Shown in pieces: positions 3,672-50,644 of a stretch of DNA of 50,884 bases; the stretch's first letter is position 1, and every line of letters starts with the position of its first letter. This stretch comes from a virus (taxonomy: Duplodnaviria > Caudoviricetes), in the IMG/VR virus record IMGVR_UViG_3300045970_000272, positions 1 to 50,884 of that record. One strand, written 5' to 3'. The notes under the pieces were generated by a model, which did no database searches, was not told where the DNA came from, and saw only the letters and a program-made list of their open reading frames with translations. The position numbers and the translations under genes are program-made.

Positions 3672-5888
3672 ATGGCTGATGTACCCAAACCTAAAGACGA
3701 AACATCTCAAGCCGACACAATGGACTTAGCAAAGATTGCTATCCAGCGTGAAGAGCGTCAGAAGGCTGAGCTGCTGTTTACGTCAGCCTCCGATTCCCGC
3801 AAGAGATACGACTGGGAGTGGTTGAACCGCGACCTGTTCCGCAGAGGATATCAATTTTCAAACAGCAATCCTAATAACAACACGGTGGTGTTGCAGTCAC
3901 GCTCCAACGCGCGCATTCCCATTAACATCGTCCACGCTCAAATGCGAACGATTAAGAACCAGGTCACCTCTATCCGACCCAAGTGGGAGGTTACTCCCCG
4001 TGGGCTGTCCGACGAGGCTGTCAAGAACGCGCGTTACTCAGGTAAATTGCTGGACAATTACTACGACTATTTGGGTCTGCGCCGATTGCTCAAGGACGTG
4101 GTCATTCAGGGGTTGGAATACTCCGTGGGTGGTCCCTGGCAGATAGGTTACGACCCGTACGGCGGAACTGACGGCACAGGTGACGCGTTCATCTGGTTGG
4201 TCGACCCCTTTGATTTCTACATCGACTCATCGGCAACCACTCCAAACAACGCCGAGTTTGTCATCAAAGCGGTGCGTACACCTCTCAACAAGGTGCGCTC
4301 CAACCCCGATTACAACTGGTCAACTGACAAGTACGAGATACAAGGCGACCAACGATTAGCTGCGTCCGAGTACAAACAGTTCTTGCTGCAAGCCATGAGG
4401 CGCAACCAGAACCAAAACAAGAGCGAGGAAGAGTCGGGCGTCATCTTGAAGGAAGCCTGGATCAAAGTTCACCTGGACGATCGCAACATGGAGGAGATGA
4501 AGACTGAACTCGAGGAGAACAACGAGGACACTGAGAACCTGCGCATGGGTGAAATCATCATGCGGTACGTGGTTTACATTGACTCGTTGCAAGACCCGCT
4601 CCAATGCAAACTACTCCGCGAGAGCGAGTTCCCATTCTCACTGTTCCAAGCCGACGTAAACCCGATGGAGGTGTACGGCGAGTCCTGGATCAAGCACGTC
4701 ATTCCAATGAACCGCGCGCTGAACGCTTTGGAGTCGTCCATCTTCCGTTACAACTACAAATACGCCATAGGGCGCATCATCATCGACAAGAACTCTGGTG
4801 TCCGAATGTTCTCCAACGAACACGGCGACATCATCGAGAAGAACGCTGGGTCAGAGGTGTCGTCAATGGCACTCCAACCGTTACCCAGCTCGTACCAGCA
4901 ACAGATTTCCAACATGAGAATGTACATCGAGGACATCGGTGGTGCGCACGAGGTTTCAATGGGTCGTGTCCCAGCAGGGGTTAAGTCAGGCATCGGTATT
5001 GCCGAGCTTAAGGCTGCAGACGCGGTCAACCAACAGGACTTGATTGATGGTTTGGAGGACTTCTTGGTGGACGCGGGTAAGAAACTGCTCAAGGTTATCG
5101 CCAAGAACTTCGACGTACCCAAGGTTATCAAGGCTCTCGGTAAGGGTGGCAAGCCCGAACACTTCGCCATCATTGGTGAGAACGCTGCGTCATTCCGCGA
5201 GAACCTCTCCACAGTTAAGATCGGCACGGACACCTTTGACCTATCGGTGATTGGTGCTGACAACGAGGTGAAAGTATCGGTCGGATCGTGGCTCGCCTAC
5301 ACCAAGGGCGCACGTCTTGAAATGTTGAAGGAATGGTTTGGTGCAGGGTTAATTGACCAAAAGACGTTCCTTGAACACGCTGAGTTTGCCGACATCTCGG
5401 GTATCGTTGACCGCACGCGCCAAGAGGAACTCTTGAAGCGCAACCAAGGTGCTGAGTCTGCAACCGACCCAGGTGTTACGGACGAGGAGATCGCCAAGTC
5501 TGAGAACGCATTGATGACAGAAGATGGGCGCGACGACGTCAAGGCTATGCCTGAGGACAGACACCAGGTTCACCTGGCTATCCATCAGGAGGCACTTGGT
5601 ACAAAGGGCGACCCAATCGTAGAGGCGCACATGGCAGAACACGAGGATTTCATTAGGCAGGGAGTCAGAACTCCTGCACGACCAGAGGCGCAACTTGCAC
5701 CTCCTCAGGCTCCAATGCCTCAAGGTATGGGTCAACCTCAACCTGCTATGGCTCCCCAAACGGTAGCTCCACAAGCGGGTCCCGTTGCACCTCCACAAGC
5801 CCCGATGCCTGGTCAGGGCGGACAACCAATGAGTCCAGAAGAACAGGCACTTCTGCAAAGCCTCACGGAGATAACGGGAGGTAGGTAA
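3672..5888 (+). CDS. Portal protein (P22-like)
   Basis: 738 aa after terminase; IPINIV...IRPKWEV, VDPFDFYID, YGESWIKHVIPMNRALN, EVSMG...SGIGI motifs; Q/P-rich C-terminal tail. Confidence 0.85.
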   Translation: MADVPKPKDETSQADTMDLAKIAIQREERQKAELLFTSASDSRKRYDWEWLNRDLFRRGYQFSNSNPNNNTVVLQSRSNARIPINIVHAQMRTIKNQVTSIRPKWEVTPRGLSDEAVKNARYSGKLLDNYYDYLGLRRLLKDVVIQGLEYSVGGPWQIGYDPYGGTDGTGDAFIWLVDPFDFYIDSSATTPNNAEFVIKAVRTPLNKVRSNPDYNWSTDKYEIQGDQRLAASEYKQFLLQAMRRNQNQNKSEEESGVILKEAWIKVHLDDRNMEEMKTELEENNEDTENLRMGEIIMRYVVYIDSLQDPLQCKLLRESEFPFSLFQADVNPMEVYGESWIKHVIPMNRALNALESSIFRYNYKYAIGRIIIDKNSGVRMFSNEHGDIIEKNAGSEVSSMALQPLPSSYQQQISNMRMYIEDIGGAHEVSMGRVPAGVKSGIGIAELKAADAVNQQDLIDGLEDFLVDAGKKLLKVIAKNFDVPKVIKALGKGGKPEHFAIIGENAASFRENLSTVKIGTDTFDLSVIGADNEVKVSVGSWLAYTKGARLEMLKEWFGAGLIDQKTFLEHAEFADISGIVDRTRQEELLKRNQGAESATDPGVTDEEIAKSENALMTEDGRDDVKAMPEDRHQVHLAIHQEALGTKGDPIVEAHMAEHEDFIRQGVRTPARPEAQLAPPQAPMPQGMGQPQPAMAPQTVAPQAGPVAPPQAPMPGQGGQPMSPEEQALLQSLTEITGGR

Positions 5889-37038: not shown

Positions 37039-37707
37039 TTATCTCCTGTAATAATTAACTTTTGCTAACATATCCTTGTTCGACCATTCCCAGAGCTTTT
37101 TGGCTGCCAGGAACGCTTCAAAGTCGTCCTCCATCCATTGGAACTTGTACACACCCTCGGGCATCAAAAGCAAGACGCCGATGCGCTTGATGTCCATGCC
37201 GTCACAGTGCTTGTAGGCGGACAATTGAAGCCCCGATTCCATGTAAATATCCTTCCCCGTTTTCACATCAATAATGCAATCGTCCCCTCCAACTTTGAGG
37301 TGAAGGTCCAATGTCCCGCCGTAGCCCTCTTTCTCGTTTACGACAGTCTTTTCATGCTCCAAGATAACAGCCTGGTACTCTTTGACCCAGGTGTCGAACG
37401 CCGTGGCGTACCCCTGGTACTCAGCGTTCTCTGGAGTGAGGACGCGCCCTGTTTCTTTGAAAGATTCAACGATTGAATGGACGGTTGTACCGCGATTCTT
37501 CGCCTTACCTGACACCGACCAGGGTGCTGCTAAGGCTTCCTTTTCACCGATGCCTGGGGTGCGGACTGTCGCCCAGTAAACTTCACGACCAAACCAGAAC
37601 CGAAGTGCTGGCTTGTCTATGATTTGCAAAATGCCTGTCACCGATGCGTAGGGTAATCCGTTGTGGAAATAAAACCCACCGCGCTTGTTTGATTTTTGAT
37701 TTGCCAT
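37039..37707 (-). CDS. PD-(D/E)XK exonuclease
   Basis: SVTGIL, RGTTVH, YGGTLD, IIDVKTG, QLSAY. Confidence 0.85.
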   Translation of the reverse strand: MANQKSNKRGGFYFHNGLPYASVTGILQIIDKPALRFWFGREVYWATVRTPGIGEKEALAAPWSVSGKAKNRGTTVHSIVESFKETGRVLTPENAEYQGYATAFDTWVKEYQAVILEHEKTVVNEKEGYGGTLDLHLKVGGDDCIIDVKTGKDIYMESGLQLSAYKHCDGMDIKRIGVLLLMPEGVYKFQWMEDDFEAFLAAKKLWEWSNKDMLAKVNYYRR

Positions 37708-41943: not shown

Positions 41944-42494
41944 TCAGCCTCCTCGGAGTCCACTCCAAAGTGTTCGTCCACCATGCGCGTGAGCCGTTCT
42001 ACATCGGCAAACACAGCTTCGTATTCCTCTTTGGTCACGCTGGTCGACATTCGATAGGCGAGGCATTTGCGCTGGATCTCAAGGGCAAGCGTGCCGATCT
42101 CCGTACCTTGGAACACCTTGGGTATGTTGAAATTGAACAGGTGGTCGCCTGCGCCGTTGAACCAGATCGCGATGGCGTGGTTTTGGTCGAGGTCGCACTT
42201 CTTATAATCGTCCATCATCCTGGTCACGCGCTCGGCGTGCTTTGCAAACAGTATGAGGTTGTAAATGAACCCCGTACCAAACTCCGACTTGTCGGCGGTC
42301 GTGTTGCGTTTCATATGATCCTTTTCTTGAGTTAATTGATTTTCTTTAATTGCTCGACGGATACATCCTGCAGCGATATTGAGACGCCAACGTAGCACGC
42401 GAAGGTGTTCATCATCGTGCGGTTGATCTATCGCTTGGGTTATGTGGGTGAGTGCCTGATTAAGGACGATTTTGGTTATTAATTTTGATTTCAT
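41934..42494 (-). CDS. Hypothetical protein
   Basis: 186-aa ORF; probable second in-frame start at MKRNTT after AAAAGGA. Confidence 0.6.
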   Translation of the reverse strand: MKSKLITKIVLNQALTHITQAIDQPHDDEHLRVLRWRLNIAAGCIRRAIKENQLTQEKDHMKRNTTADKSEFGTGFIYNLILFAKHAERVTRMMDDYKKCDLDQNHAIAIWFNGAGDHLFNFNIPKVFQGTEIGTLALEIQRKCLAYRMSTSVTKEEYEAVFADVERLTRMVDEHFGVDSEEAEWA

Positions 42495-42931
42495 ATCGTT
42501 TCTTTTACTTTGGCGACTAAATCTGTATTTATTATTCCAGACAGTTCGTTGTAAGTGTCATACTTTCCCTGCCACAACTCAAGCTCATTCAACGCCCGCG
42601 TGAGGATTTGCGCAAGCATATCTTTGTCGGAGAGTATTCTGTAGGTGGAATAGTAACCGCGAACGGGGCGGTCATCTATTCTCACCGTACAGTTTTGAAA
42701 GGCTTGCACCTTCCTGTGGTCGATAACAACGCGGACGCTGTTGATTATTTGGCGCGCCTCGTGAATTCTCCAGTTATCGGACGCAACGCCGTCGTCCCAA
42801 GTGAACTCGTTGTGAAGTGGGTGGAGTGACGAAGAAGCCTCCGCCACTAATACCTCTGGTTGGATACTCCCGTCCCGTTTCTCAATCTCAGAGAGTATCT
42901 GAACTTTAATTTCATTATTAGCTTTATTCAT
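42491..42931 (-). CDS. Helical protein downstream of the array; putative accessory of the Cas7-like system
   Basis: GSIQPEVLVAEA...HPLHNEFTWDD..A...WRIHEARQII; SD GGAGG; first gene after the array. Confidence 0.7.
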   Translation of the reverse strand: MNKANNEIKVQILSEIEKRDGSIQPEVLVAEASSSLHPLHNEFTWDDGVASDNWRIHEARQIINSVRVVIDHRKVQAFQNCTVRIDDRPVRGYYSTYRILSDKDMLAQILTRALNELELWQGKYDTYNELSGIINTDLVAKVKETI

Positions 42932-42954
42932 AAAGCCTCCATTAATTATTATTT

Positions 42955-43736
42955 CAACACACCTCGCCTTGCCATATATTGACTTAACAATACTGACCGC
43001 GACTCACCATAACTGCCACGTCATACCGCCCTATCCTCAACCCAACTCGACTCACCATTACTGCCACACCCTACCTGTCCATGTCCTCCACTACTCGACC
43101 CGACCCTCCCCAACTGCCAGACCATGACGCGCCACAATACACCGTGACTCACCCCTCCTTACCTCTGCGCACCACTACTGCCCTACCGCACCTCACATTT
43201 CCCCACCGAACAATCCGTACCATAACTCGACTCACCACTACTGCCGGTCCGTGCCTAACCAAGACTCACCCCGCACCCCTTACGTTGCGCCACCGCTCCT
43301 CACCGCTACAGCCTCAACGCTCCTATCCATGACTCAACTTTCCCCATCGTACCTTTCCATTACTGCCTAACCATAACTTACCGCTCTCAGACCTACCCCG
43401 ACATTCCATACCGACCAGTACACTCCTAACCTTTACTGCCATCCGTACCGCACAGACCTCGGCTCTCCATAACAACCGCGACACTCCACTACTGCCAAAC
43501 CAATCAAAACCAATCCCGTGCGGACCCCAACATAACATTCCTTTACTGCCGTCCCCGACGTTCCAGAACTATCCCACCTGTCCATAACAACCATAACTCA
43601 CCGTTACAGCCAAACCGTGACAACCTAATCAGACCTCGCCTCCCTCTCCATTACTGCCAAACCGAGACCCACCTGACCTCTCCCCACCTGACCAAATTAC
43701 ACCAAAACATTACGCGCCCTCCGGACCATTACTGCC
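42955..43736 (-). repeat. Non-coding array of 13 GGCWG-headed units made of 5-nt GGY-like/NN steps; putative guide-RNA array
   Basis: + strand ACTGCC/ACAGCC at 43012, 43060, 43113, 43177, 43240, 43308, 43362, 43435, 43491, 43545, 43606, 43653, 43731; ACC/TCC/GAC/AAC recur every ~5 nt between them; no credible ORF. Confidence 0.85.
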
Positions 43737-43741
43737 ACGAA

Positions 43742-43763
43742 GGAGGGGTGGGCAGCCCCCTCC
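43742..43763 (-). other. Hairpin between the Cas7-like stop codon and the array
   Basis: GGAGGGG...CCCCTCC 7-bp perfect stem, 5 nt from the stop and 5 nt from the first unit. Confidence 0.7.
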
Positions 43764-43768
43764 ACAAT

Positions 43769-44440
43769 TTATGAGGATTTCACCTCAAACGTACCCGAAT
43801 CTCCATCTCTCTCAGGTCGCCATTCGCCGAGTCCTTGTGAGAAACCCGCCGTTTGAATCAGATTTGCAATCTGTTCTGGTGAGAATAAGTCTGCATTGAA
43901 ACGGATAACTAGAGCCATGCTCCAATTACGAACCGCTCCACGGTAGCGCAAGTCTGCGCTTCCCATGCCGACCCGAACCATGTCCTCCCGAAGGATAACT
44001 TGGCTGGTTTTGGGGTCGTATGCGAACACGTTTTCACCCTTTTCACCATTCGCCATTTCTGGCTTCTTAGCTGGTTTGAACGGTTTGCCGTCAATTAAGA
44101 CGCGCACCAAGCCGTCTTGATCTCCTTTGATGAAGATCGCGCCACGGATCATGGTCATTTTCAAACCTTCTATCGACCGAGCTGCTCCAACTACCGCCTG
44201 TTTGATTGCCAAAGCTGGGAAGCAGATGTAGCCTTCTTGGTCGTAGTAGAAACTAGCCAAGTATTCTTCAATGGGGTTACGCACGCCGTGGGGTTGTTTG
44301 ACCCTTTTAGCTTGCTTGGCTCGGATCATTTCCTTTGCTTTCTCTGACCACTTGTGAAAGATGATCGGACTGACACTGGCGATTTCGAGCTGCATTGTTT
44401 GAATATTTGGTGCTGGAATTACTATGTTTGTTTCTGGCAT
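43769..44440 (-). CDS. Stand-alone Cas7/RAMP-like RNA-binding protein
   Basis: RAMP-type order of motifs: LEIASVSPIIFH (beta1), YICFPALAIKQAVVGAA (P..xxK helix), REDMVRV...DLRYR (thumb), C-terminal Gly-rich loop GFSQGLGEWRPERDGDSGTFEV. Confidence 0.75.
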   Translation of the reverse strand: MPETNIVIPAPNIQTMQLEIASVSPIIFHKWSEKAKEMIRAKQAKRVKQPHGVRNPIEEYLASFYYDQEGYICFPALAIKQAVVGAARSIEGLKMTMIRGAIFIKGDQDGLVRVLIDGKPFKPAKKPEMANGEKGENVFAYDPKTSQVILREDMVRVGMGSADLRYRGAVRNWSMALVIRFNADLFSPEQIANLIQTAGFSQGLGEWRPERDGDSGTFEVKSS

Positions 44441-44478
44441 AAATTGTTAATTCACCACCTTTCAATTGATCGGTTCAT

Positions 44479-44766
44479 TTATGATTCCGATTTATCTGTG
44501 AGTGCCTTTTGGTGTAGGTGGCAGTGCCGTGTGGCGATCACCTCGAGGTCTTTGAGTATTTCCATGATGGGCGGAATGATGTCGTTTGGAAGTTCAAACT
44601 TGGCGTCCTCGCGCCAACCGTCCGTGCTGATGGAGTATGTGGTAATTGTTTGACCGCCGTCTGTCATGAGGGCGATGGACGCCTCTACTTCGGGCTTGTC
44701 CTCGTTCAACTTCACCCCAAACGACACGATGCGCGCGTTGGTGATGTTTATGTTAATCTTTCTCAT
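44479..44766 (-). CDS. Hypothetical protein
   Basis: ATG 44766 follows AAGGGG within ORF 44479..44802. Confidence 0.6.
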   Translation of the reverse strand: MRKININITNARIVSFGVKLNEDKPEVEASIALMTDGGQTITTYSISTDGWREDAKFELPNDIIPPIMEILKDLEVIATRHCHLHQKALTDKSES

Positions 44767-46378: not shown

Positions 46379-47584
46379 ATGAACAAAGATATGCGTCCGA
46401 TTAGTAGTTTGACTCTGTGGGACAAGAACCCCAGGTCAATCTCCAAAGAATCATTTGAGTCCCTCAAGAACAAAATCAAACGCTGGGGTCAGTTCAAACC
46501 GCTGTTAATGACTCCCGAGGGGATCATCATTGGTGGCAACATGAGGTTGCGCGCGTACAAGGAGCTGGGTATCAGCGAGGCGTGGGTGTCCGAGATCCAC
46601 CCCAAGGGTGAGGCTGAGATGATTGAGATTGCGTTGGCGGACAACGAACTCGCAGGTCGCTGGGACAGGGACGCTTTGGCAGAATTGGTGTACGGCTACA
46701 AAGACGAGATCAATTTGGGCGACTACCAGCTAGACTTAGGCAAGCCTGCCGACTTAAACCAACTCCTTTCACAGTACGGTCCCTCCGCCGAGGAGGACGA
46801 AGTGCCTGAGGTGTCCGATGAACCGCCCGTGTCGGTACGCGGTGAAATCTACGAACTCGGTCAGCACCGCTTAATGTGTGGCGACTCCTGTTCGTTGGAC
46901 GACGTAACCCTGTTGATGGACGGCAAGAAAGCTGACATGGTTTTCACTGACCCTCCCTACAACGTCAACTACGGCGAAACAATGAAGGACGAGCTGCGTG
47001 GCGGTAACCGCACGATCATGAACGACAACATGGGCGACGCTTTCCCTCAATTCTTAAACGATGTGTGCGTCAACTTGGTCATGTTTACCAAGGGCGCGAT
47101 TTACATTTGTATGTCCTCCTCTGAACTGACCACCCTCAAGGAAGCCTTTGTCAGCGCAGGTGGGCATTGGTCAACTTTCCTTATTTGGGTCAAGAACACA
47201 TTCACAATGGGACGCTCCGACTACCAACGCCAGTACGAGCCTATTTTGTACGGGTGGAAAGAGGGTACGGATCGTTACTGGTGCGGTGCGCGCGACCAGG
47301 GCGACATCTGGGAGGTCAACCGACCCACCAAGAATGATTTGCACCCCACCATGAAACCGTTGGAACTGTGCGAGCGCGCTATCAAGAACTCGTCCAAGAC
47401 TGAGGACATCGTGTTGGATCTATTCTTAGGCTCAGGCTCTACGCTGATCGCTGCGGAACAGACGGGGCGCGTGTGCTTTGGTATGGAACTCGATCCCAAA
47501 TACTGCGATGTGATACGTAAGCGTTATGCAAAATACATGAACAAGGAGGAAGAATGGCAGACACTAACTCCCAAACTCGCATAG
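46379..47584 (+). CDS. ParB-N domain fused to an N4-cytosine/N6-adenine DNA methyltransferase (beta class)
   Basis: WDKNPR, IIGGNMRL, LGQHRLMCGDS, FTDPPYN, HPTMKP, VLDLFLGSGSTLIA. Confidence 0.92.
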   Translation: MNKDMRPISSLTLWDKNPRSISKESFESLKNKIKRWGQFKPLLMTPEGIIIGGNMRLRAYKELGISEAWVSEIHPKGEAEMIEIALADNELAGRWDRDALAELVYGYKDEINLGDYQLDLGKPADLNQLLSQYGPSAEEDEVPEVSDEPPVSVRGEIYELGQHRLMCGDSCSLDDVTLLMDGKKADMVFTDPPYNVNYGETMKDELRGGNRTIMNDNMGDAFPQFLNDVCVNLVMFTKGAIYICMSSSELTTLKEAFVSAGGHWSTFLIWVKNTFTMGRSDYQRQYEPILYGWKEGTDRYWCGARDQGDIWEVNRPTKNDLHPTMKPLELCERAIKNSSKTEDIVLDLFLGSGSTLIAAEQTGRVCFGMELDPKYCDVIRKRYAKYMNKEEEWQTLTPKLA

Positions 47585-48531
47585 CCGAGTCGGTTACCTA
47601 TTTGCACCCTGATAAAATCTGCGACCAAATCTCCGACGCGGTCGTTGATGCCTGTTTGAAAGTCGACCCGTACGCTCGGGTGGCGGTTGAAACAATGGGC
47701 GGTCACGGCATACTCACTCTCACGGGTGAAATCACAATGGACGAACGAATTGATGTGGCTCAGGTTGCAGGCGACGCCTACCGCGCGATGACGTACAAGG
47801 ACATCGGCGTGCAGACAAACATCGTGCAACAGTCCGACGAGATATCCAACAAGGTCGACAACGGCGGGGCTGGCGACCAGGGTGTAATGGTCGGGTACGC
47901 CTGCCAAGACAACCCAGACTTCATTCCTCAAGAGCTGCACTTGTCGCGCAAACTACTCGAGAACTTCAAGCGTGACGGTAAAAGCCAGGTGGTGTTGGAC
48001 GACGGACACCTGACCTCGGTGGTGCTGTCGGTTCAAAACGAATCCAAGGAGGGATTGGAAGCTTACGTCCGCAAAGTCCTAAAGAGTTATGGGCCAATCG
48101 ACTCGCTCTACTGCAACAACATCGGTTCATTTTCTATGGGAGGGTTTGACGCCGACACAGGGGTAACTGGTCGCAAGATCGTGGTGGACGCATACGGTCC
48201 GCGCGTACCTGTGGGGGGCGGAGCTTTCTCGGGCAAGGACGCAACCAAGGTAGACCGCTCTGCTGCGTACATGGCGCGCTGGTGTGCCTTGAAGTTACTT
48301 CACGACTCGGGTGCAGATGAGGTCACGGTACGTTTGGGTTATGTAATAGGAAGCGAGTATCCTTTACTGCAAGAAGCGTGCATTGACGGCAGGTACCAAA
48401 AGATACACGAGGACTGTCGTCCACAAGCAATTATCGAACGGTTTGATTTACGAACACCCATTTACCAAAAGACAGCACGGTACGGTGCATTTGGGAGTGG
48501 GATGTTCAAGTGGGACAGATACGATGACTGA
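47554..48531 (+). CDS. metK: S-adenosylmethionine synthetase
   Basis: ESVT..HPDKICDQISD, GAGDQG, DADTGVTGRKIVVDAYG, GGGAFSGKDATKVDRSAAY. Confidence 0.95.
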   Translation: MADTNSQTRIAESVTYLHPDKICDQISDAVVDACLKVDPYARVAVETMGGHGILTLTGEITMDERIDVAQVAGDAYRAMTYKDIGVQTNIVQQSDEISNKVDNGGAGDQGVMVGYACQDNPDFIPQELHLSRKLLENFKRDGKSQVVLDDGHLTSVVLSVQNESKEGLEAYVRKVLKSYGPIDSLYCNNIGSFSMGGFDADTGVTGRKIVVDAYGPRVPVGGGAFSGKDATKVDRSAAYMARWCALKLLHDSGADEVTVRLGYVIGSEYPLLQEACIDGRYQKIHEDCRPQAIIERFDLRTPIYQKTARYGAFGSGMFKWDRYDD

Positions 48532-49003
48532 ACAAATGTTGGCAAAGACTAGTGGCAAGGTTCTCCCTGCCGCTGGTACTGGCAGACCGTCTGATGTAAC
48601 GGAGGAGGTTACCGCGAAACTGGACGAGGTGTTCAAGCTCGGGGTAACCGTTGAAACTGCTTGTCGGTACGCGCAAATCTCGATCGACTCATTTTATAGG
48701 GCTTGCAAACGGGACGAGGCTTTCGCAAGGAAGATGGATACAGCAAGGGAATTTGCACGTTTGGCTGCTGGACAAGTGGTCATGGACGCGATCGTCCACG
48801 ACAAGGATTTACCCACCGCCAGATGGTATTTGGAGAAGAAGCACGGCGCAGAGTTTAGTGGTCCGCCCAGATTAGAACTCAATCAAAACAATCAAATAAT
48901 TAACGTGGAAGCAAATCATGAGCAACTATCAGAAAGACTCGCTCAGCTCTTTGGCGTCACTGCCACCGCAAGTGCGGTTGAAGATGGTGAAGAGGCTGAG
49001 TAA
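48524..49003 (+). CDS. terS: Terminase small subunit
   Basis: GRPSDVT...TACRYAQISIDSFY HTH, ARWYLEKK; directly upstream of the TerL ATPase gene; ATG 48524 overlaps the metK stop. Confidence 0.75.
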   Translation: MTEQMLAKTSGKVLPAAGTGRPSDVTEEVTAKLDEVFKLGVTVETACRYAQISIDSFYRACKRDEAFARKMDTAREFARLAAGQVVMDAIVHDKDLPTARWYLEKKHGAEFSGPPRLELNQNNQIINVEANHEQLSERLAQLFGVTATASAVEDGEEAE

Positions 49004-49658
49004 AGAGGAGCTGGAGGAAGTGTCGCGCCTCACGGCTGTGGCGGAGGTTGAGCGTGCAAAGAACGACCTCTTTTACTACCTGGAGAACATGGTGTGGACG
49101 ATGGACGAACACGACGAGGATCACCCCACCAAGAAGCTTCCGATGGAGAAGCGTTACTTGCAGGAACTCGCCTACCACTTCTTGAACGAGAAGCTGCTGT
49201 TGGTCGAGAAGTCCCGTCAAATGATGGTGACGTGGTTGATGGTGGCGTGTCATTTGTGGGACGCACAGTTCCACGAGGGGCGGCGCATCTTCTTCCAATC
49301 CAAGAAGGAGGCGGACGCAAATCACCTGGTTGACCGCGCCAAGTTCATCTACAACAACTACCCACCCGTGTACCGTGAGATTATCCACACCAACTACGCT
49401 GCGCGCACTCCGATGGCGTACCTTAAGCTGGAGTTTGGCAAGCTCAACTCAATCATACAAGGCACTCCCCAGGGGTCGGACGTTCTCCGCCAATACACCG
49501 CCTCACGTATCTTTATGGACGAGGCTGCGTTCCAGGAGAAGGCTGAGGAGACGTGGATTGCTGCCAAACCTACTGTGGTGGGTGGCGGGTCGGTCGTGAT
49601 GGTTTCCACTCCAAACTTTAAGAACTTCTTTTATCAAGTGAGGAGCGATTCTCTATGA
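48918..49658 (+). CDS. terL: Terminase large subunit, N-terminal ATPase half
   Basis: Walker A EKSRQMMVTW, Walker B IFMDEAAF, coupling motif VSTP, then a stop 14 codons later. Confidence 0.88.
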   Translation: MSNYQKDSLSSLASLPPQVRLKMVKRLSKEELEEVSRLTAVAEVERAKNDLFYYLENMVWTMDEHDEDHPTKKLPMEKRYLQELAYHFLNEKLLLVEKSRQMMVTWLMVACHLWDAQFHEGRRIFFQSKKEADANHLVDRAKFIYNNYPPVYREIIHTNYAARTPMAYLKLEFGKLNSIIQGTPQGSDVLRQYTASRIFMDEAAFQEKAEETWIAAKPTVVGGGSVVMVSTPNFKNFFYQVRSDSL

Positions 49659-50644
49659 TCAAGTACATCGACCTGTTTGCAGGCGTGGGAGGGTTTCATT
49701 ATGGATTTGACAAAGCTAATAACCTTTGGTCGTTGGCTGAGGGGTTTGATTGCGTTTACTCAAACGAGTGGGACAAGTACGCCGCCAGCGTTTACAGGCG
49801 TCACTACAACGAATGTGACGAGCGGGACATACGAACCGTACCATCTCAAGACCTCCCAAGCTTCGACCTCCTCTGTGGAGGATTTCCCTGTCAACCCTTC
49901 TCGGTGGCTGGACGACATGGAGGTTTTGATGACACCAGGGGAACGCTCTTCTTTGAGATTGTTAGGATACTGTTCGATCGCCAACCCAGACTCGTACTAC
50001 TTGAAAACGTCAAAGGGCTGCTCAGTCATGACGGTGGACGCACTTTCAAAAGAATCATCTCCGCGCTTGATGAGCTGGGGTACAACGTTCAATGGGATGT
50101 GCTTAACAGCAAGGATTACGGGGTACCGCAAAACAGGGAGCGCATCATCATTGTCGGCTATCTTAGAGGAACACGTAGACTCGAAGTATTTCCTATCCGA
50201 CGCAGCAGTTCAGAAGATACTTTGGCGCGCATCGCAACCAAGGTTTACGAACCGTTCCCGCAAACCCACCGACTATCAGACGCGTTTAGAATCCGAGGAG
50301 TAGATGGTGTGAGCGCAACCCTCAAGGGGCTGGGTGGCGGCATGGGTGCAAAGACTGGACTGTACGCCGTACGCCAACCGCTCAAGTTTCTCGACCGTAA
50401 CCAGCGCAACATCGAGGGCGACTACTCGTACACCGTGGACAGTTTGAACACGGGCGGCGTTCGGATTGGTACAAAGGTGCGCCGACTGACACCCGTGGAG
50501 TGCGAACGGTTGCAGGGTTACCCAGACGACTGGACCAAGTTCGGAGAAGATGGTAAGTTAATGAGTGACAGCCAACGCTACAAGATGATGGGAAACGCTG
50601 TCACTACAAATGTTGTCACAGCCGTGGCAGAAAGGTTGGTATGA
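49655..50644 (+). CDS. dcm: DNA (cytosine-5) methyltransferase
   Basis: DLFAGVGG, GGFPCQ, ENVKG, QNRERI, RRLTPVECERLQGYP, GNAV. Confidence 0.95.
   Translation: MIKYIDLFAGVGGFHYGFDKANNLWSLAEGFDCVYSNEWDKYAASVYRRHYNECDERDIRTVPSQDLPSFDLLCGGFPCQPFSVAGRHGGFDDTRGTLFFEIVRILFDRQPRLVLLENVKGLLSHDGGRTFKRIISALDELGYNVQWDVLNSKDYGVPQNRERIIIVGYLRGTRRLEVFPIRRSSSEDTLARIATKVYEPFPQTHRLSDAFRIRGVDGVSATLKGLGGGMGAKTGLYAVRQPLKFLDRNQRNIEGDYSYTVDSLNTGGVRIGTKVRRLTPVECERLQGYPDDWTKFGEDGKLMSDSQRYKMMGNAVTTNVVTAVAERLV

Follow-up and report, generated by a model that had tools for sequence, protein, structure and literature searches.

VIPR (viral interference programmable repeat) systems are minimal RNA-guided DNA binders that were discovered only months ago, use a non-contiguous guide code and have been argued to be older than CRISPR. 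According to the available text of their description (PMC13142463), they consist of a small RAMP protein (Vipr), an accessory protein encoded by a vap gene, and guide RNAs (vrRNAs) of 9–16 YNNGG repeats. The pentamers combine a GGY scaffold triplet with two variable bases (NN), 'or a related consensus', and it is the NN bases that pair with double-stranded DNA, each third base of the target being skipped. The same text presents VIPR systems as mostly viral and divides them into seven types with several array layouts. In one of these layouts, the staggered array, neighboring vrRNAs overlap by 1 nt (fig. S18 legend, bioRxiv 10.64898/2026.04.26.720920). The cryo-electron microscopy (cryo-EM) preprint, in its accessible part, assigns the binding of two scaffold guanines to residues H17, R138, D177, W178 and R179 of the Vipr protein from Escherichia phage SUSP1. 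A literature search on VIPR found three preprints, all of one laboratory, on the discovery, the cryo-EM and a satellite. Here, we describe a locus of this kind on the minus strand of the IMG/VR virus record IMGVR_UViG_3300045970_000272, which was analyzed in its entirety (50,884 bp; 'the window').

The locus and the systems closest to it

The locus is very probably the VIPR system of a complete 50.9-kb tailed phage from a pond. It belongs to the VIPR kind described in April 2026, probably with the staggered array layout, and is not a new kind. An earlier note, made from the sequence alone, had put it forward as a candidate non-CRISPR RNA-guided system with the architecture of VIPR, leaving the novelty to be checked. 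The match to VIPR holds, as VIPR has been published and the protein is homologous to the solved SUSP1 Vipr (by phmmer, BLASTP and hhalign), and the novelty is gone, the system having already been described (bioRxiv 10.64898/2026.04.26.720920). No new principle comes with the locus, but as a clean example found in nature, in a pond phage that has not been cultured, it lies outside the systems of E. coli and Pseudomonas that have been studied to date. What this member adds is a relaxed scaffold with pocket substitutions, frequent slips, a guide conserved only at its NN bases, and a candidate target with a near-matching self site. Its four elements are the following:

43769..44440, minus strand: vipr gene, 223 aa, a minimal RAMP (Cas7-like), from the list of open reading frames (ORFs); PHROG 4652 at E 4e-25
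43742..43763, minus strand: hairpin directly 3′ of the vipr stop codon, with a 7-bp stem (GGAGGGG/CCCCTCC) and an 8-nt loop, GCTGCCCA
42954..43740, minus strand: predicted vrRNA array, ~165 tandem G-[G/T]-[A/C/T]-N-N units with 13 GGCWG marks
42491..42931, minus strand: accessory (vap-like) gene, 146 aa, conserved beside vipr; PHROG 15946, function not assigned by PHROG

The 223-aa gene, the hairpin, the G-rich gap and the 146-aa gene all lie where the earlier note had placed them. The gap between both genes measures 837 nt (42932-43768) and consists of 42% G and 12% C on the minus strand. It had been taken as non-coding, which agrees with its 5-nt period and with the ORFs inside it, which are only 43–83 aa long and in varied frames. 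A coding region was rejected on these same grounds, as a 5-nt period is unfit for coding.

The locus resembles staggered-array VIPR systems in having a lone Vipr RAMP, one accessory gene and a non-coding pentamer array on the same strand, in being phage-borne, and in lacking cas genes and a CRISPR array. Its units appear to stand head to tail with a minus-one-base shift at their boundaries, and there is no space for separate promoters or tails. It differs from these systems in its relaxed G-[G/T]-[A/C/T] scaffold and in extra 4-nt slips in nine of 12 units, and from most of its relatives in that its array separates vipr from the accessory gene.

The type II VIPR system of Escherichia phage SUSP1 (NC_028808.2; vipr YP_009199429.1, vap1 and vrRNA1-4; structure 36pp) has a homologous Vipr of ~21% identity (hhalign). 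The guanine-binding H, R, W and R are identical, while SUSP1 D177 is conservatively replaced by a glutamate here. Both loci have vipr followed by a 146-aa gene, guides of pentamer repeats, and a predicted target in an essential gene of a competitor, in codon register and with the wobble base skipped. In contrast, the SUSP1 vrRNAs are described as separate ~100-nt genes with structured pseudoknot tails of 40–60 nt, none of which occur here, and vap1 has the same length as the 146-aa partner but no sequence relation to it. The type II layout (SUSP1 / P. fulva clade) was ruled out: the invariant stretch is only the ~11-nt mark, the fold z is −1.94, and the partner is not vap1 by sequence.

The RAMPs of class 1 CRISPR systems (the Cas7 family: Csm3, Cmr4, type VII Cas7, Cas7-11) share with the predicted fold of the 223-aa protein an RRM core, a thumb and a glycine-rich loop. 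By analogy with the published complexes, one subunit would be expected to cover each fixed stretch of guide RNA, with bases flipped out at regular intervals. Unlike in class 1 CRISPR, no repeat-spacer array, cas1, cas2, cas6, cas10 or large subunit was found in the record, and unlike the contiguous spacer of CRISPR, the guide has a scaffold that repeats every 5 nt, each unit contributing two informative bases. CRISPR–Cas was ruled out, as the record holds no CRISPR-like repeat and a Pfam search of its 69 ORFs (5 at E<=1, 64 at E<=1e-4) returned no Cas family. Short-range direct repeats occur nowhere in the record except in the array itself. The earlier note had likewise seen neither cas genes nor a repeat-spacer array.

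The Vipr protein

Homology and predicted fold identify the 223-aa protein as a Vipr, which is to say a Cas7-related RAMP reduced to a single RRM. Among PDB sequences, phmmer picks out the 'SUSP1 Vipr protein' (chain 36pp_D; E 2.5e-4), with the G-loop region aligned, and BLASTP aligns residues 155-209 with the SUSP1 Vipr at 1e-8. When a profile of 59 sequences is compared with the SUSP1 Vipr by hhalign, the match runs end to end over 183 columns (probability 97.9%, E 5e-13). In the alignment, H29, R167, E206, W207 and R208 correspond to the guanine-binding residues H17, R138, D177, W178 and R179 of SUSP1. These positions are almost invariant among 160 relatives, with H29 kept in 159, R167 in 160, E206 in 154 (the other 6 having D), W207 in 158 and R208 in 160. 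The G-loop reads GLGEWRPERDGDSGTF.

The AlphaFold2 model of the protein (pLDDT 90, pTM 0.85) points the same way. All Foldseek matches listed for it belong to the Cas7 family (Csm3/Cas7 chains from type III, type VII and Cas7-11 complexes), with probability 1.00, E from 3e-7, 118 matches at E<=1e-3, TM-scores of 0.35–0.51 and identities of 8–17%. The copy of the PDB used for this search ends on 8 April 2026, and Vipr structures were not returned from it. The RAMP/Cas7-like fold that the earlier note had read from motif order, and for which it had proposed structure prediction and Foldseek as the check, is thus borne out by a model that matches only Cas7/Csm3 chains among those listed. Pfam has no family for either the 223-aa or the 146-aa protein. 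The Vipr of the window and its closest relatives (222–247 aa) carry an insertion of ~25 residues at ~120-145, KPAKKPEMANGEKGENVFAYDPKTSQ, which appears as an insert in the hhalign alignment relative to the 195–200-aa majority of the family.

The predicted vrRNA array

The motif GGC[AT]GT[AT]NNGG occurs 13 times in the gap, the number of units counted in the earlier note, and only three further times in the remaining record on both strands together. The marks start, on the minus strand, at 43736, 43658, 43611, 43550, 43496, 43440, 43367, 43313, 43245, 43182, 43118, 43065 and 43017, with successive marks spaced by 47–78 nt. The units measure 47–86 nt. Apart from this ~11-nt mark, the units have no invariant stretch.

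Between the marks, the sequence is periodic. The autocorrelation of GG dinucleotides peaks at lag 5 (44 versus 26.2 ± 5.4 in mononucleotide shuffles, z 3.3), with further peaks at lags 9/10 and 14/15 that indicate slippage of the register. The gap was then tiled into units by expectation-maximization and Viterbi decoding, with 60 dinucleotide-preserving shuffles as the null. The tiling consists of 139 five-nt and 26 four-nt units (~165 in total) and reaches a log-odds of 121, compared with 7.8 ± 5.7 in the shuffles (maximum 19; z ~20). Within the tiled units, scaffold position 1 is G in 92%, position 2 is G in 54% and T in 37%, and position 3 is T in 49%, A in 32%, C in 18% and essentially never G, with positions 4-5 being the two variable bases. 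A G-[GT]-[ACT] (G-K-H) scaffold is present in 120 of the 139 five-nt units (86%), and each guide unit holds 9–15 pentamers. A tandem pentamer array of this kind (z ~20), its consensus relaxed to G-K-H-N-N, agrees with the published definition, and 9–15 repeats per unit lie within the published range. A second array (at least 12 units) was not found elsewhere in the record.

The earlier note had let each unit start with GGCWG. The marks themselves stand, but judged from the sequence, the units are better read as ending with them, so that each opens with a GTWNN, closes with the GGCWG that follows and has one G in common with its neighbor. The putative units, numbered along the minus strand and given here from mark to mark, are listed below; the 3′ limit of the last one is uncertain because the periodicity fades ahead of the ribosome-binding site of the next gene.

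43659..43736, minus strand: putative vrRNA unit 1, 78 nt, including an unbroken run of 12 pentamers
43612..43658, minus strand: putative vrRNA unit 2, 47 nt
43551..43611, minus strand: putative vrRNA unit 3, 61 nt, mark GGCTG
43497..43550, minus strand: putative vrRNA unit 4, 54 nt (GGCA plus 10 pentamers), the sole unit in common with the sister phage G002
43441..43496, minus strand: putative vrRNA unit 5, 56 nt
43368..43440, minus strand: putative vrRNA unit 6, 73 nt
43314..43367, minus strand: putative vrRNA unit 7, 54 nt (GGCA plus 10 pentamers), with the exonuclease gene of phage contig G001 as candidate target
43246..43313, minus strand: putative vrRNA unit 8, 68 nt, mark GGCTG
43183..43245, minus strand: putative vrRNA unit 9, 63 nt
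43119..43182, minus strand: putative vrRNA unit 10, 64 nt (GGCA plus 12 pentamers)
43066..43118, minus strand: putative vrRNA unit 11, 53 nt
43018..43065, minus strand: putative vrRNA unit 12, 48 nt
42954..43017, minus strand: putative vrRNA unit 13, 3′ limit uncertain

An Rfam scan of 42400-44500 at E<=1 gave a single chance-level match (mcrA sRNA) and no family at threshold. An array interspersed with hammerhead ribozymes (the layout of fig. S19) was also considered and rejected, as the same scan contains no hammerhead.

Related loci

The family was searched among proteins (7,247 at E<=1e-3), and 80 viral and 80 metagenomic loci, plus two whole relatives, were compared. Of these 162 loci, 122 have an array of at least 20 G-K-H units on the same strand as vipr, and two have one on the opposite strand. 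A less strict detector called an array next to vipr in 128 of 160 loci; 25 have too little downstream sequence, and seven were not called despite at least 700 nt downstream; at least two of these seven (L069 and L074) do hold arrays, missed by the position filter. The earlier note had proposed to see whether similar arrays and the 146-aa gene recur together in homologs, and they do: a same-strand array is present in 122 of 162 loci, and a homolog of the 146-aa protein in 127 of 160.

The order vipr–array–partner is also seen in the sister phage G002, a complete genome whose Vipr is 65% identical, and in L082/L083 and L001, with identities of 50% and 47%. In most relatives, the array is placed after both vipr and the partner gene. 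The exact GGCWGTWNNGG mark is not conserved, with zero to two copies per relative locus. GGCAG is conserved in the arrays of relatives, where 379 of 501 spacings (76%) equal 5n-1, most commonly 49, 54, 59, 44 and 64. This spacing fits 'staggered' arrays with an overlap of one nucleotide, as worded in the fig. S18 legend. A nucleotide search of the phage collection gave no match.

These comparisons also bear on whether the G-rich tract might work as DNA, for instance as an origin, an iteron or protein-binding array, or a G-quadruplex element, with no relation to the neighboring protein. The strand skew (42% G versus 12% C) and the position of the tract amid replication genes would suit such an element. 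GG dinucleotides spaced by 5 nt also form, formally, a two-tetrad G-quadruplex motif. However, among 162 loci, which come from widely differing phages, an array shares the strand of vipr in 122 and lies on the other strand in only two, and between phages whole units are replaced while the scaffold is kept, unlike in iterons. Moreover, the adjacent protein has a relative that binds RNA and forms filaments, and the structure of this relative together with such repeats has been solved, as the accessible part of the structural preprint describes. We consider a DNA-level element highly improbable and the tract very probably a vrRNA array.

The scaffold triplet and the third-base pocket

Relaxation of the scaffold is shared with the near relatives of the window, where strict GGY makes up 45% (L082), 29% (L081) and 34% (L001) of units; the more distant L002 and L003 have 90% and 68%. 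The relaxation coincides with substitutions in Vipr. Residues L77, A78, Q202 and L204 of the window align by hhalign with E71, M72, C173 and V175 of SUSP1, which the cryo-EM preprint, in its accessible part, places around the pocket for the third base (its text writes T175; the sequence has V175). Arrays beside a Vipr with L at 77, L at 204 or Q at 202 (window numbering) have 33–40% A at scaffold position 3, an association that comes from one small clade (8, 8 and 4 loci), and loci with the majority V/I residues at these positions have 5–8%. From the alignments, the association of pocket residues with the scaffold may be a single evolutionary event, and the tie between pocket substitutions and third-base relaxation is a lead, not a demonstration.

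The most extreme case is the metagenome locus L098. The units of its array (~820-1059) are mostly GGA-NN, with A at scaffold position 3 in 72%, and its Vipr has L, Q and L at window positions 77, 202 and 204, with D replacing E in the G-loop. In L098, the scaffold code may thus have a variant form that is specific for a purine. We tentatively suggest, as a possibility that we hold with some doubt, that the window phage, G002, L081-L084 and L098 form a Vipr sub-lineage with a shifted scaffold code, which would comprise a non-pyrimidine third base, U as second base, tolerance of units one base short, and the pocket substitutions L77/Q202/L204. If this is true, and if the sub-lineage is not among the related-consensus logos of the preprint, these loci would be natural variants of the protein–RNA 'decoding' rule and a first look at its evolution. 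For now, the locus shows how far the scaffold triplet drifts (G-K-H) with the guanine-binding residues fixed, and L77, Q202 and L204 are candidate third-base specificity residues.

A comparison with G002 shows which bases of a guide are kept. Twelve of the 13 units of the window are unrelated to those of G002 beyond the mark. The exception is unit 4, which aligns with a score of 61 against a null maximum of 24. Over its first six pentamers, the changes between both phages number 0/12 at NN, 0/6 at the first G and 4/12 at scaffold positions 2-3 (one-sided Fisher test of 0/12 versus 4/12: ~0.05, our own estimate). This pattern is as expected if positions 4-5 are informative and positions 2-3 are only bound to a base class. 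The earlier note had supposed that subunits grip a fixed triplet and that the variable dinucleotides encode a target. This is the published mechanism, and it fits both the conserved NN bases of unit 4 and the codon-register match of guide 7 described below.

The hairpin and the accessory gene

The arms of the hairpin behind vipr, read from the sequence, are 43763-43757 and 43748-43742. A terminator scan did not call it, and no T-run follows the stem; promoter-like and terminator-like sites around the locus occur at shuffle level only. G002 has a 7-bp stem at the equivalent place after vipr (L175:3201-3220), of different stem sequence and with a similar loop that contains CTGCC (CCTGCC), and the hairpin is absent in L082 and L001. 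It might serve in processing or stability, or attenuate weakly.

The 146-aa gene has a GGAGG ribosome-binding site 5 bases ahead of its ATG. Using tblastn, homologs were found in 73 of the 80 viral loci and, when the metagenomic loci are included, in 127 of 160. Most of them follow vipr directly, and many of the loci without one are short contigs. The alignment of the family was built from these tblastn matches in the fetched loci, as a word-based homolog search with the 146-aa protein returned only the protein itself. In the AlphaFold2 model, which has high confidence (pLDDT 93.5), residues 1-100 form an alpha/beta domain and the C-terminus is a helical hairpin. With VIA-align, the best Z is 6.1, and winged-helix proteins (SelB, PadR, MexR, AhrC and FoxP4) and a putative nucleic-acid-binding protein are found at Z 5-6. 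From the gene position and this borderline winged-helix-like fold, it can be weakly inferred that the protein is a nucleic-acid-binding accessory (Vap). In the available text on VIPR, DNA binding is predicted for the vaps of types II, VI and VII, and some of these are described as winged-helix-like (PMC13142463 / bioRxiv 10.64898/2026.04.26.720920), with which the signal of the 146-aa protein is compatible.

Candidate targets of the guides

Targets were sought with the rule given in the VIPR papers, in which NN pairs are joined by one wildcard base. Runs of at least nine pentamers were scanned at skips of 0–3 bases against the own genome with the array masked. One guide stands out, unit 7, whose NN series is AT AA AC GG AA GA AT TA GC GA:

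37238..37266, minus strand: best own-genome match of guide 7, 17/20 informative bases, the skipped base being the wobble position

This site lies in the exonuclease gene (37039-37707, PHROG 298), where it encodes the peptide VKTGKDIYME. Its score of 17/20 was reached by 0 of 200 shuffled guides in a first run and by 4 of 300 in a second. Among skips 0–3, only skip 1 outscored all 200 shuffled versions of guide 7, with skips 0, 2 and 3 at null level. The exact 20-base pattern has one match in viral_contigs and none in the far larger genome_contigs, so the latter gives no clue to the host. The single match is in G001, a 49-kb phage contig, at the homologous site of an exonuclease that is 46% identical, again with the wobble base skipped. 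There, 20 of 20 informative bases match and the site spells IKTGKDIYAE, compared with VKTGKDIYME in the window. The six known alleles of this exonuclease score 20 (G001), 18, 17, 17, 17 and 17 (own). Judged on these sequence matches, the G001 exonuclease is a candidate target of guide 7 with moderate statistical support, and the targets are most likely genes of competing phages. The site pair, with 20/20 in the rival and 17/20 in the own genome, could be used to gauge how many NN mismatches spare self.

G001 has a VIPR locus of its own (L166:13147-14592), with a vipr, a partner gene and canonical GGYNN units. Its arrays flank the partner gene, which has two guides on its vipr side and four beyond it, and the units start with GGCAG-GTNN. 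All six G001 guides scored at null level against the window phage. In 745 kb of related loci at skip 1, three guides of the window were equalled by 1–2 of 60 shuffles, which is not significant, and when all 13 full units were compared with G001 and the own genome, only guide 7 stood out.

The self match could also be read as the function itself, with VIPR mainly regulating genes of the phage, such as the timing of the exonuclease, rather than attacking rivals. The in-frame match of 17/20 (85%) in the own exonuclease lies above the 80% NN threshold stated in the available text of the paper, and the array sits inside the early/replication operon, near the DnaB, exonuclease and ParB-like genes. 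Yet the rival allele matches at 20/20 while the own allele and three others match at 17, which looks like discrimination against self, and the other 12 guides have no own-genome match above the null. In addition, the published natural targets are other mobile elements, with no self hits for the guides of types II, III and V that were screened, as reported in the accessible part of that paper. Self-regulation as the main role thus seems decidedly unlikely, and interference with competing phages is the role that we prefer.

Proposed mechanism and points against the VIPR reading

Taken together with the published systems, the following mechanism can be proposed for the VIPR locus of the window. 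The G-rich gap would be co-transcribed with vipr from a leftward early operon, as suggested by the architecture and by what the fig. S18 legend states of such arrays. Processing would then yield ~13 head-to-tail 'staggered' vrRNAs of 9–15 pentamers each, running from GTWNN to the next GGCWG and sharing one G with the neighbor. One Vipr protomer is expected to bind per pentamer, sequestering the G-[G/T]-[A/C/T] triplet with the two variable bases facing outward; this step is drawn by analogy from the SUSP1 cryo-EM work and from the conserved H29, R167, E206, W207 and R208. As in the published mechanism, the NN bases of the filament would pair with double-stranded DNA, skipping each third base, and silence transcription of the bound gene. 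Guide 7 would be aimed, codon by codon, at the PD-(D/E)xK active-site stretch IKTGKDIYAE of the G001 exonuclease gene, from which the own VKTGKDIYME differs at 3/20 bases. The 146-aa partner would act as the accessory (Vap) protein and is probably a nucleic-acid binder.

A number of results count against this reading. Several concern the array itself. Only 48 of the 139 five-nt units (35%) carry a strict GGY, in line with the 'unusually degenerate triplets' remarked on in the earlier note. The marks are spaced by 5n-1 in only three of 12 cases (units 4, 7 and 10), and the remaining nine units each contain one to three additional 4-nt steps (e.g. GGTT followed by G, or GGAC followed by G). These steps may mark further unit boundaries, be slips that are tolerated, or reflect decay of some units, and they may bear on a filament of one protomer per pentamer. 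The whole-array RNA fold, at the z of −1.94 given above, is barely above shuffles, with no SUSP1-like structured invariant 3′ tail. As for the accessory gene, Foldseek with the 146-aa model returned nothing at E<=1e-3, the Z values of its fold matches are below the level that the tool takes as meaningful (and possibly reflect a common arrangement only), and SUSP1 vap1 could not be aligned to it by BLASTP and reached a probability of only 0.1% in hhalign.

Other points concern the targets and the expression. Twelve of the 13 guides are at null level in the own genome, in G001 and in the 745 kb of related loci, and exact-pattern scans of viral_contigs gave 0 matches for the 12-pentamer run of unit 1, for unit 10 (12 and 11 pentamers) and for unit 4. 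The case of guide 7 is partly circular, as this guide was picked for the database scan by its self match and the homologous sites share a conserved core; the joint chance of its results is a few in a thousand by rough estimate, not by computation. Its self match of 85% exceeds the 80% NN cut-off at which the accessible part of the paper reports no self hits, so self-sparing is unproven. Lastly, the public sequencing runs that hold the locus are two pond metagenomes (DNA), with no RNA run among them. The contigs from pond metagenomes are identical to the window wherever they cover it, with no variation.

The slips and the relaxed scaffold could together mean that what remains is a VIPR array in decay or already without function, with intact protein genes, mostly degenerate guides and impaired loading. 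The low share of strict GGY (35%), the 26 four-nt slips, the spacing of 5n-1 in 3/12 cases compared with 76% in relatives, and the 12 of 13 guides with no detectable target would all follow from decay. However, the relaxed scaffold is common to G002, L081, L082 and L084 and accompanies the substitutions in the third-base pocket, which suggests altered specificity rather than decay. Position-1 G is kept in 92% of units and position-3 G is essentially excluded, and the unit shared with G002 has been altered at scaffold positions only. Missing targets in public data are, moreover, to be expected for a pond phage with few sequenced neighbors. On balance, a remnant appears unlikely, and a working VIPR system remains our preferred reading of the locus.

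The phage and further observations

The record is rated a complete virus genome and has direct terminal repeats. The phage encodes an SU10/P22-like portal, an adaptor, a capsid and a tail fiber, and near the VIPR locus, in a leftward early/replication block, a DnaB helicase, the exonuclease and a ParB-like protein. As for the terminase large subunit, only a 246-aa ORF (48918-49658, plus strand) matches, and only to the C-terminal (nuclease) part; the ATPase part may reside in an unannotated neighboring ORF, or the gene may be split.

The plus strand also carries a full S-adenosylmethionine synthetase (three Pfam domains), together with a ParB-like/N6-N4 fusion methyltransferase and a C5 cytosine methyltransferase (47554-48531, 46379-47584 and 49655-50644). 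The methyltransferases and the synthetase look like a self-supplied methylation kit, presumably directed against host restriction.

Finally, downstream of the VIPR locus of L001 and unrelated to the findings above, positions 4865-5010 of L001 hold a 9-nt motif repeated in tandem (TGCAACTTC / TGCGACTTC), which a called ORF (4882-5076) partly overlaps.

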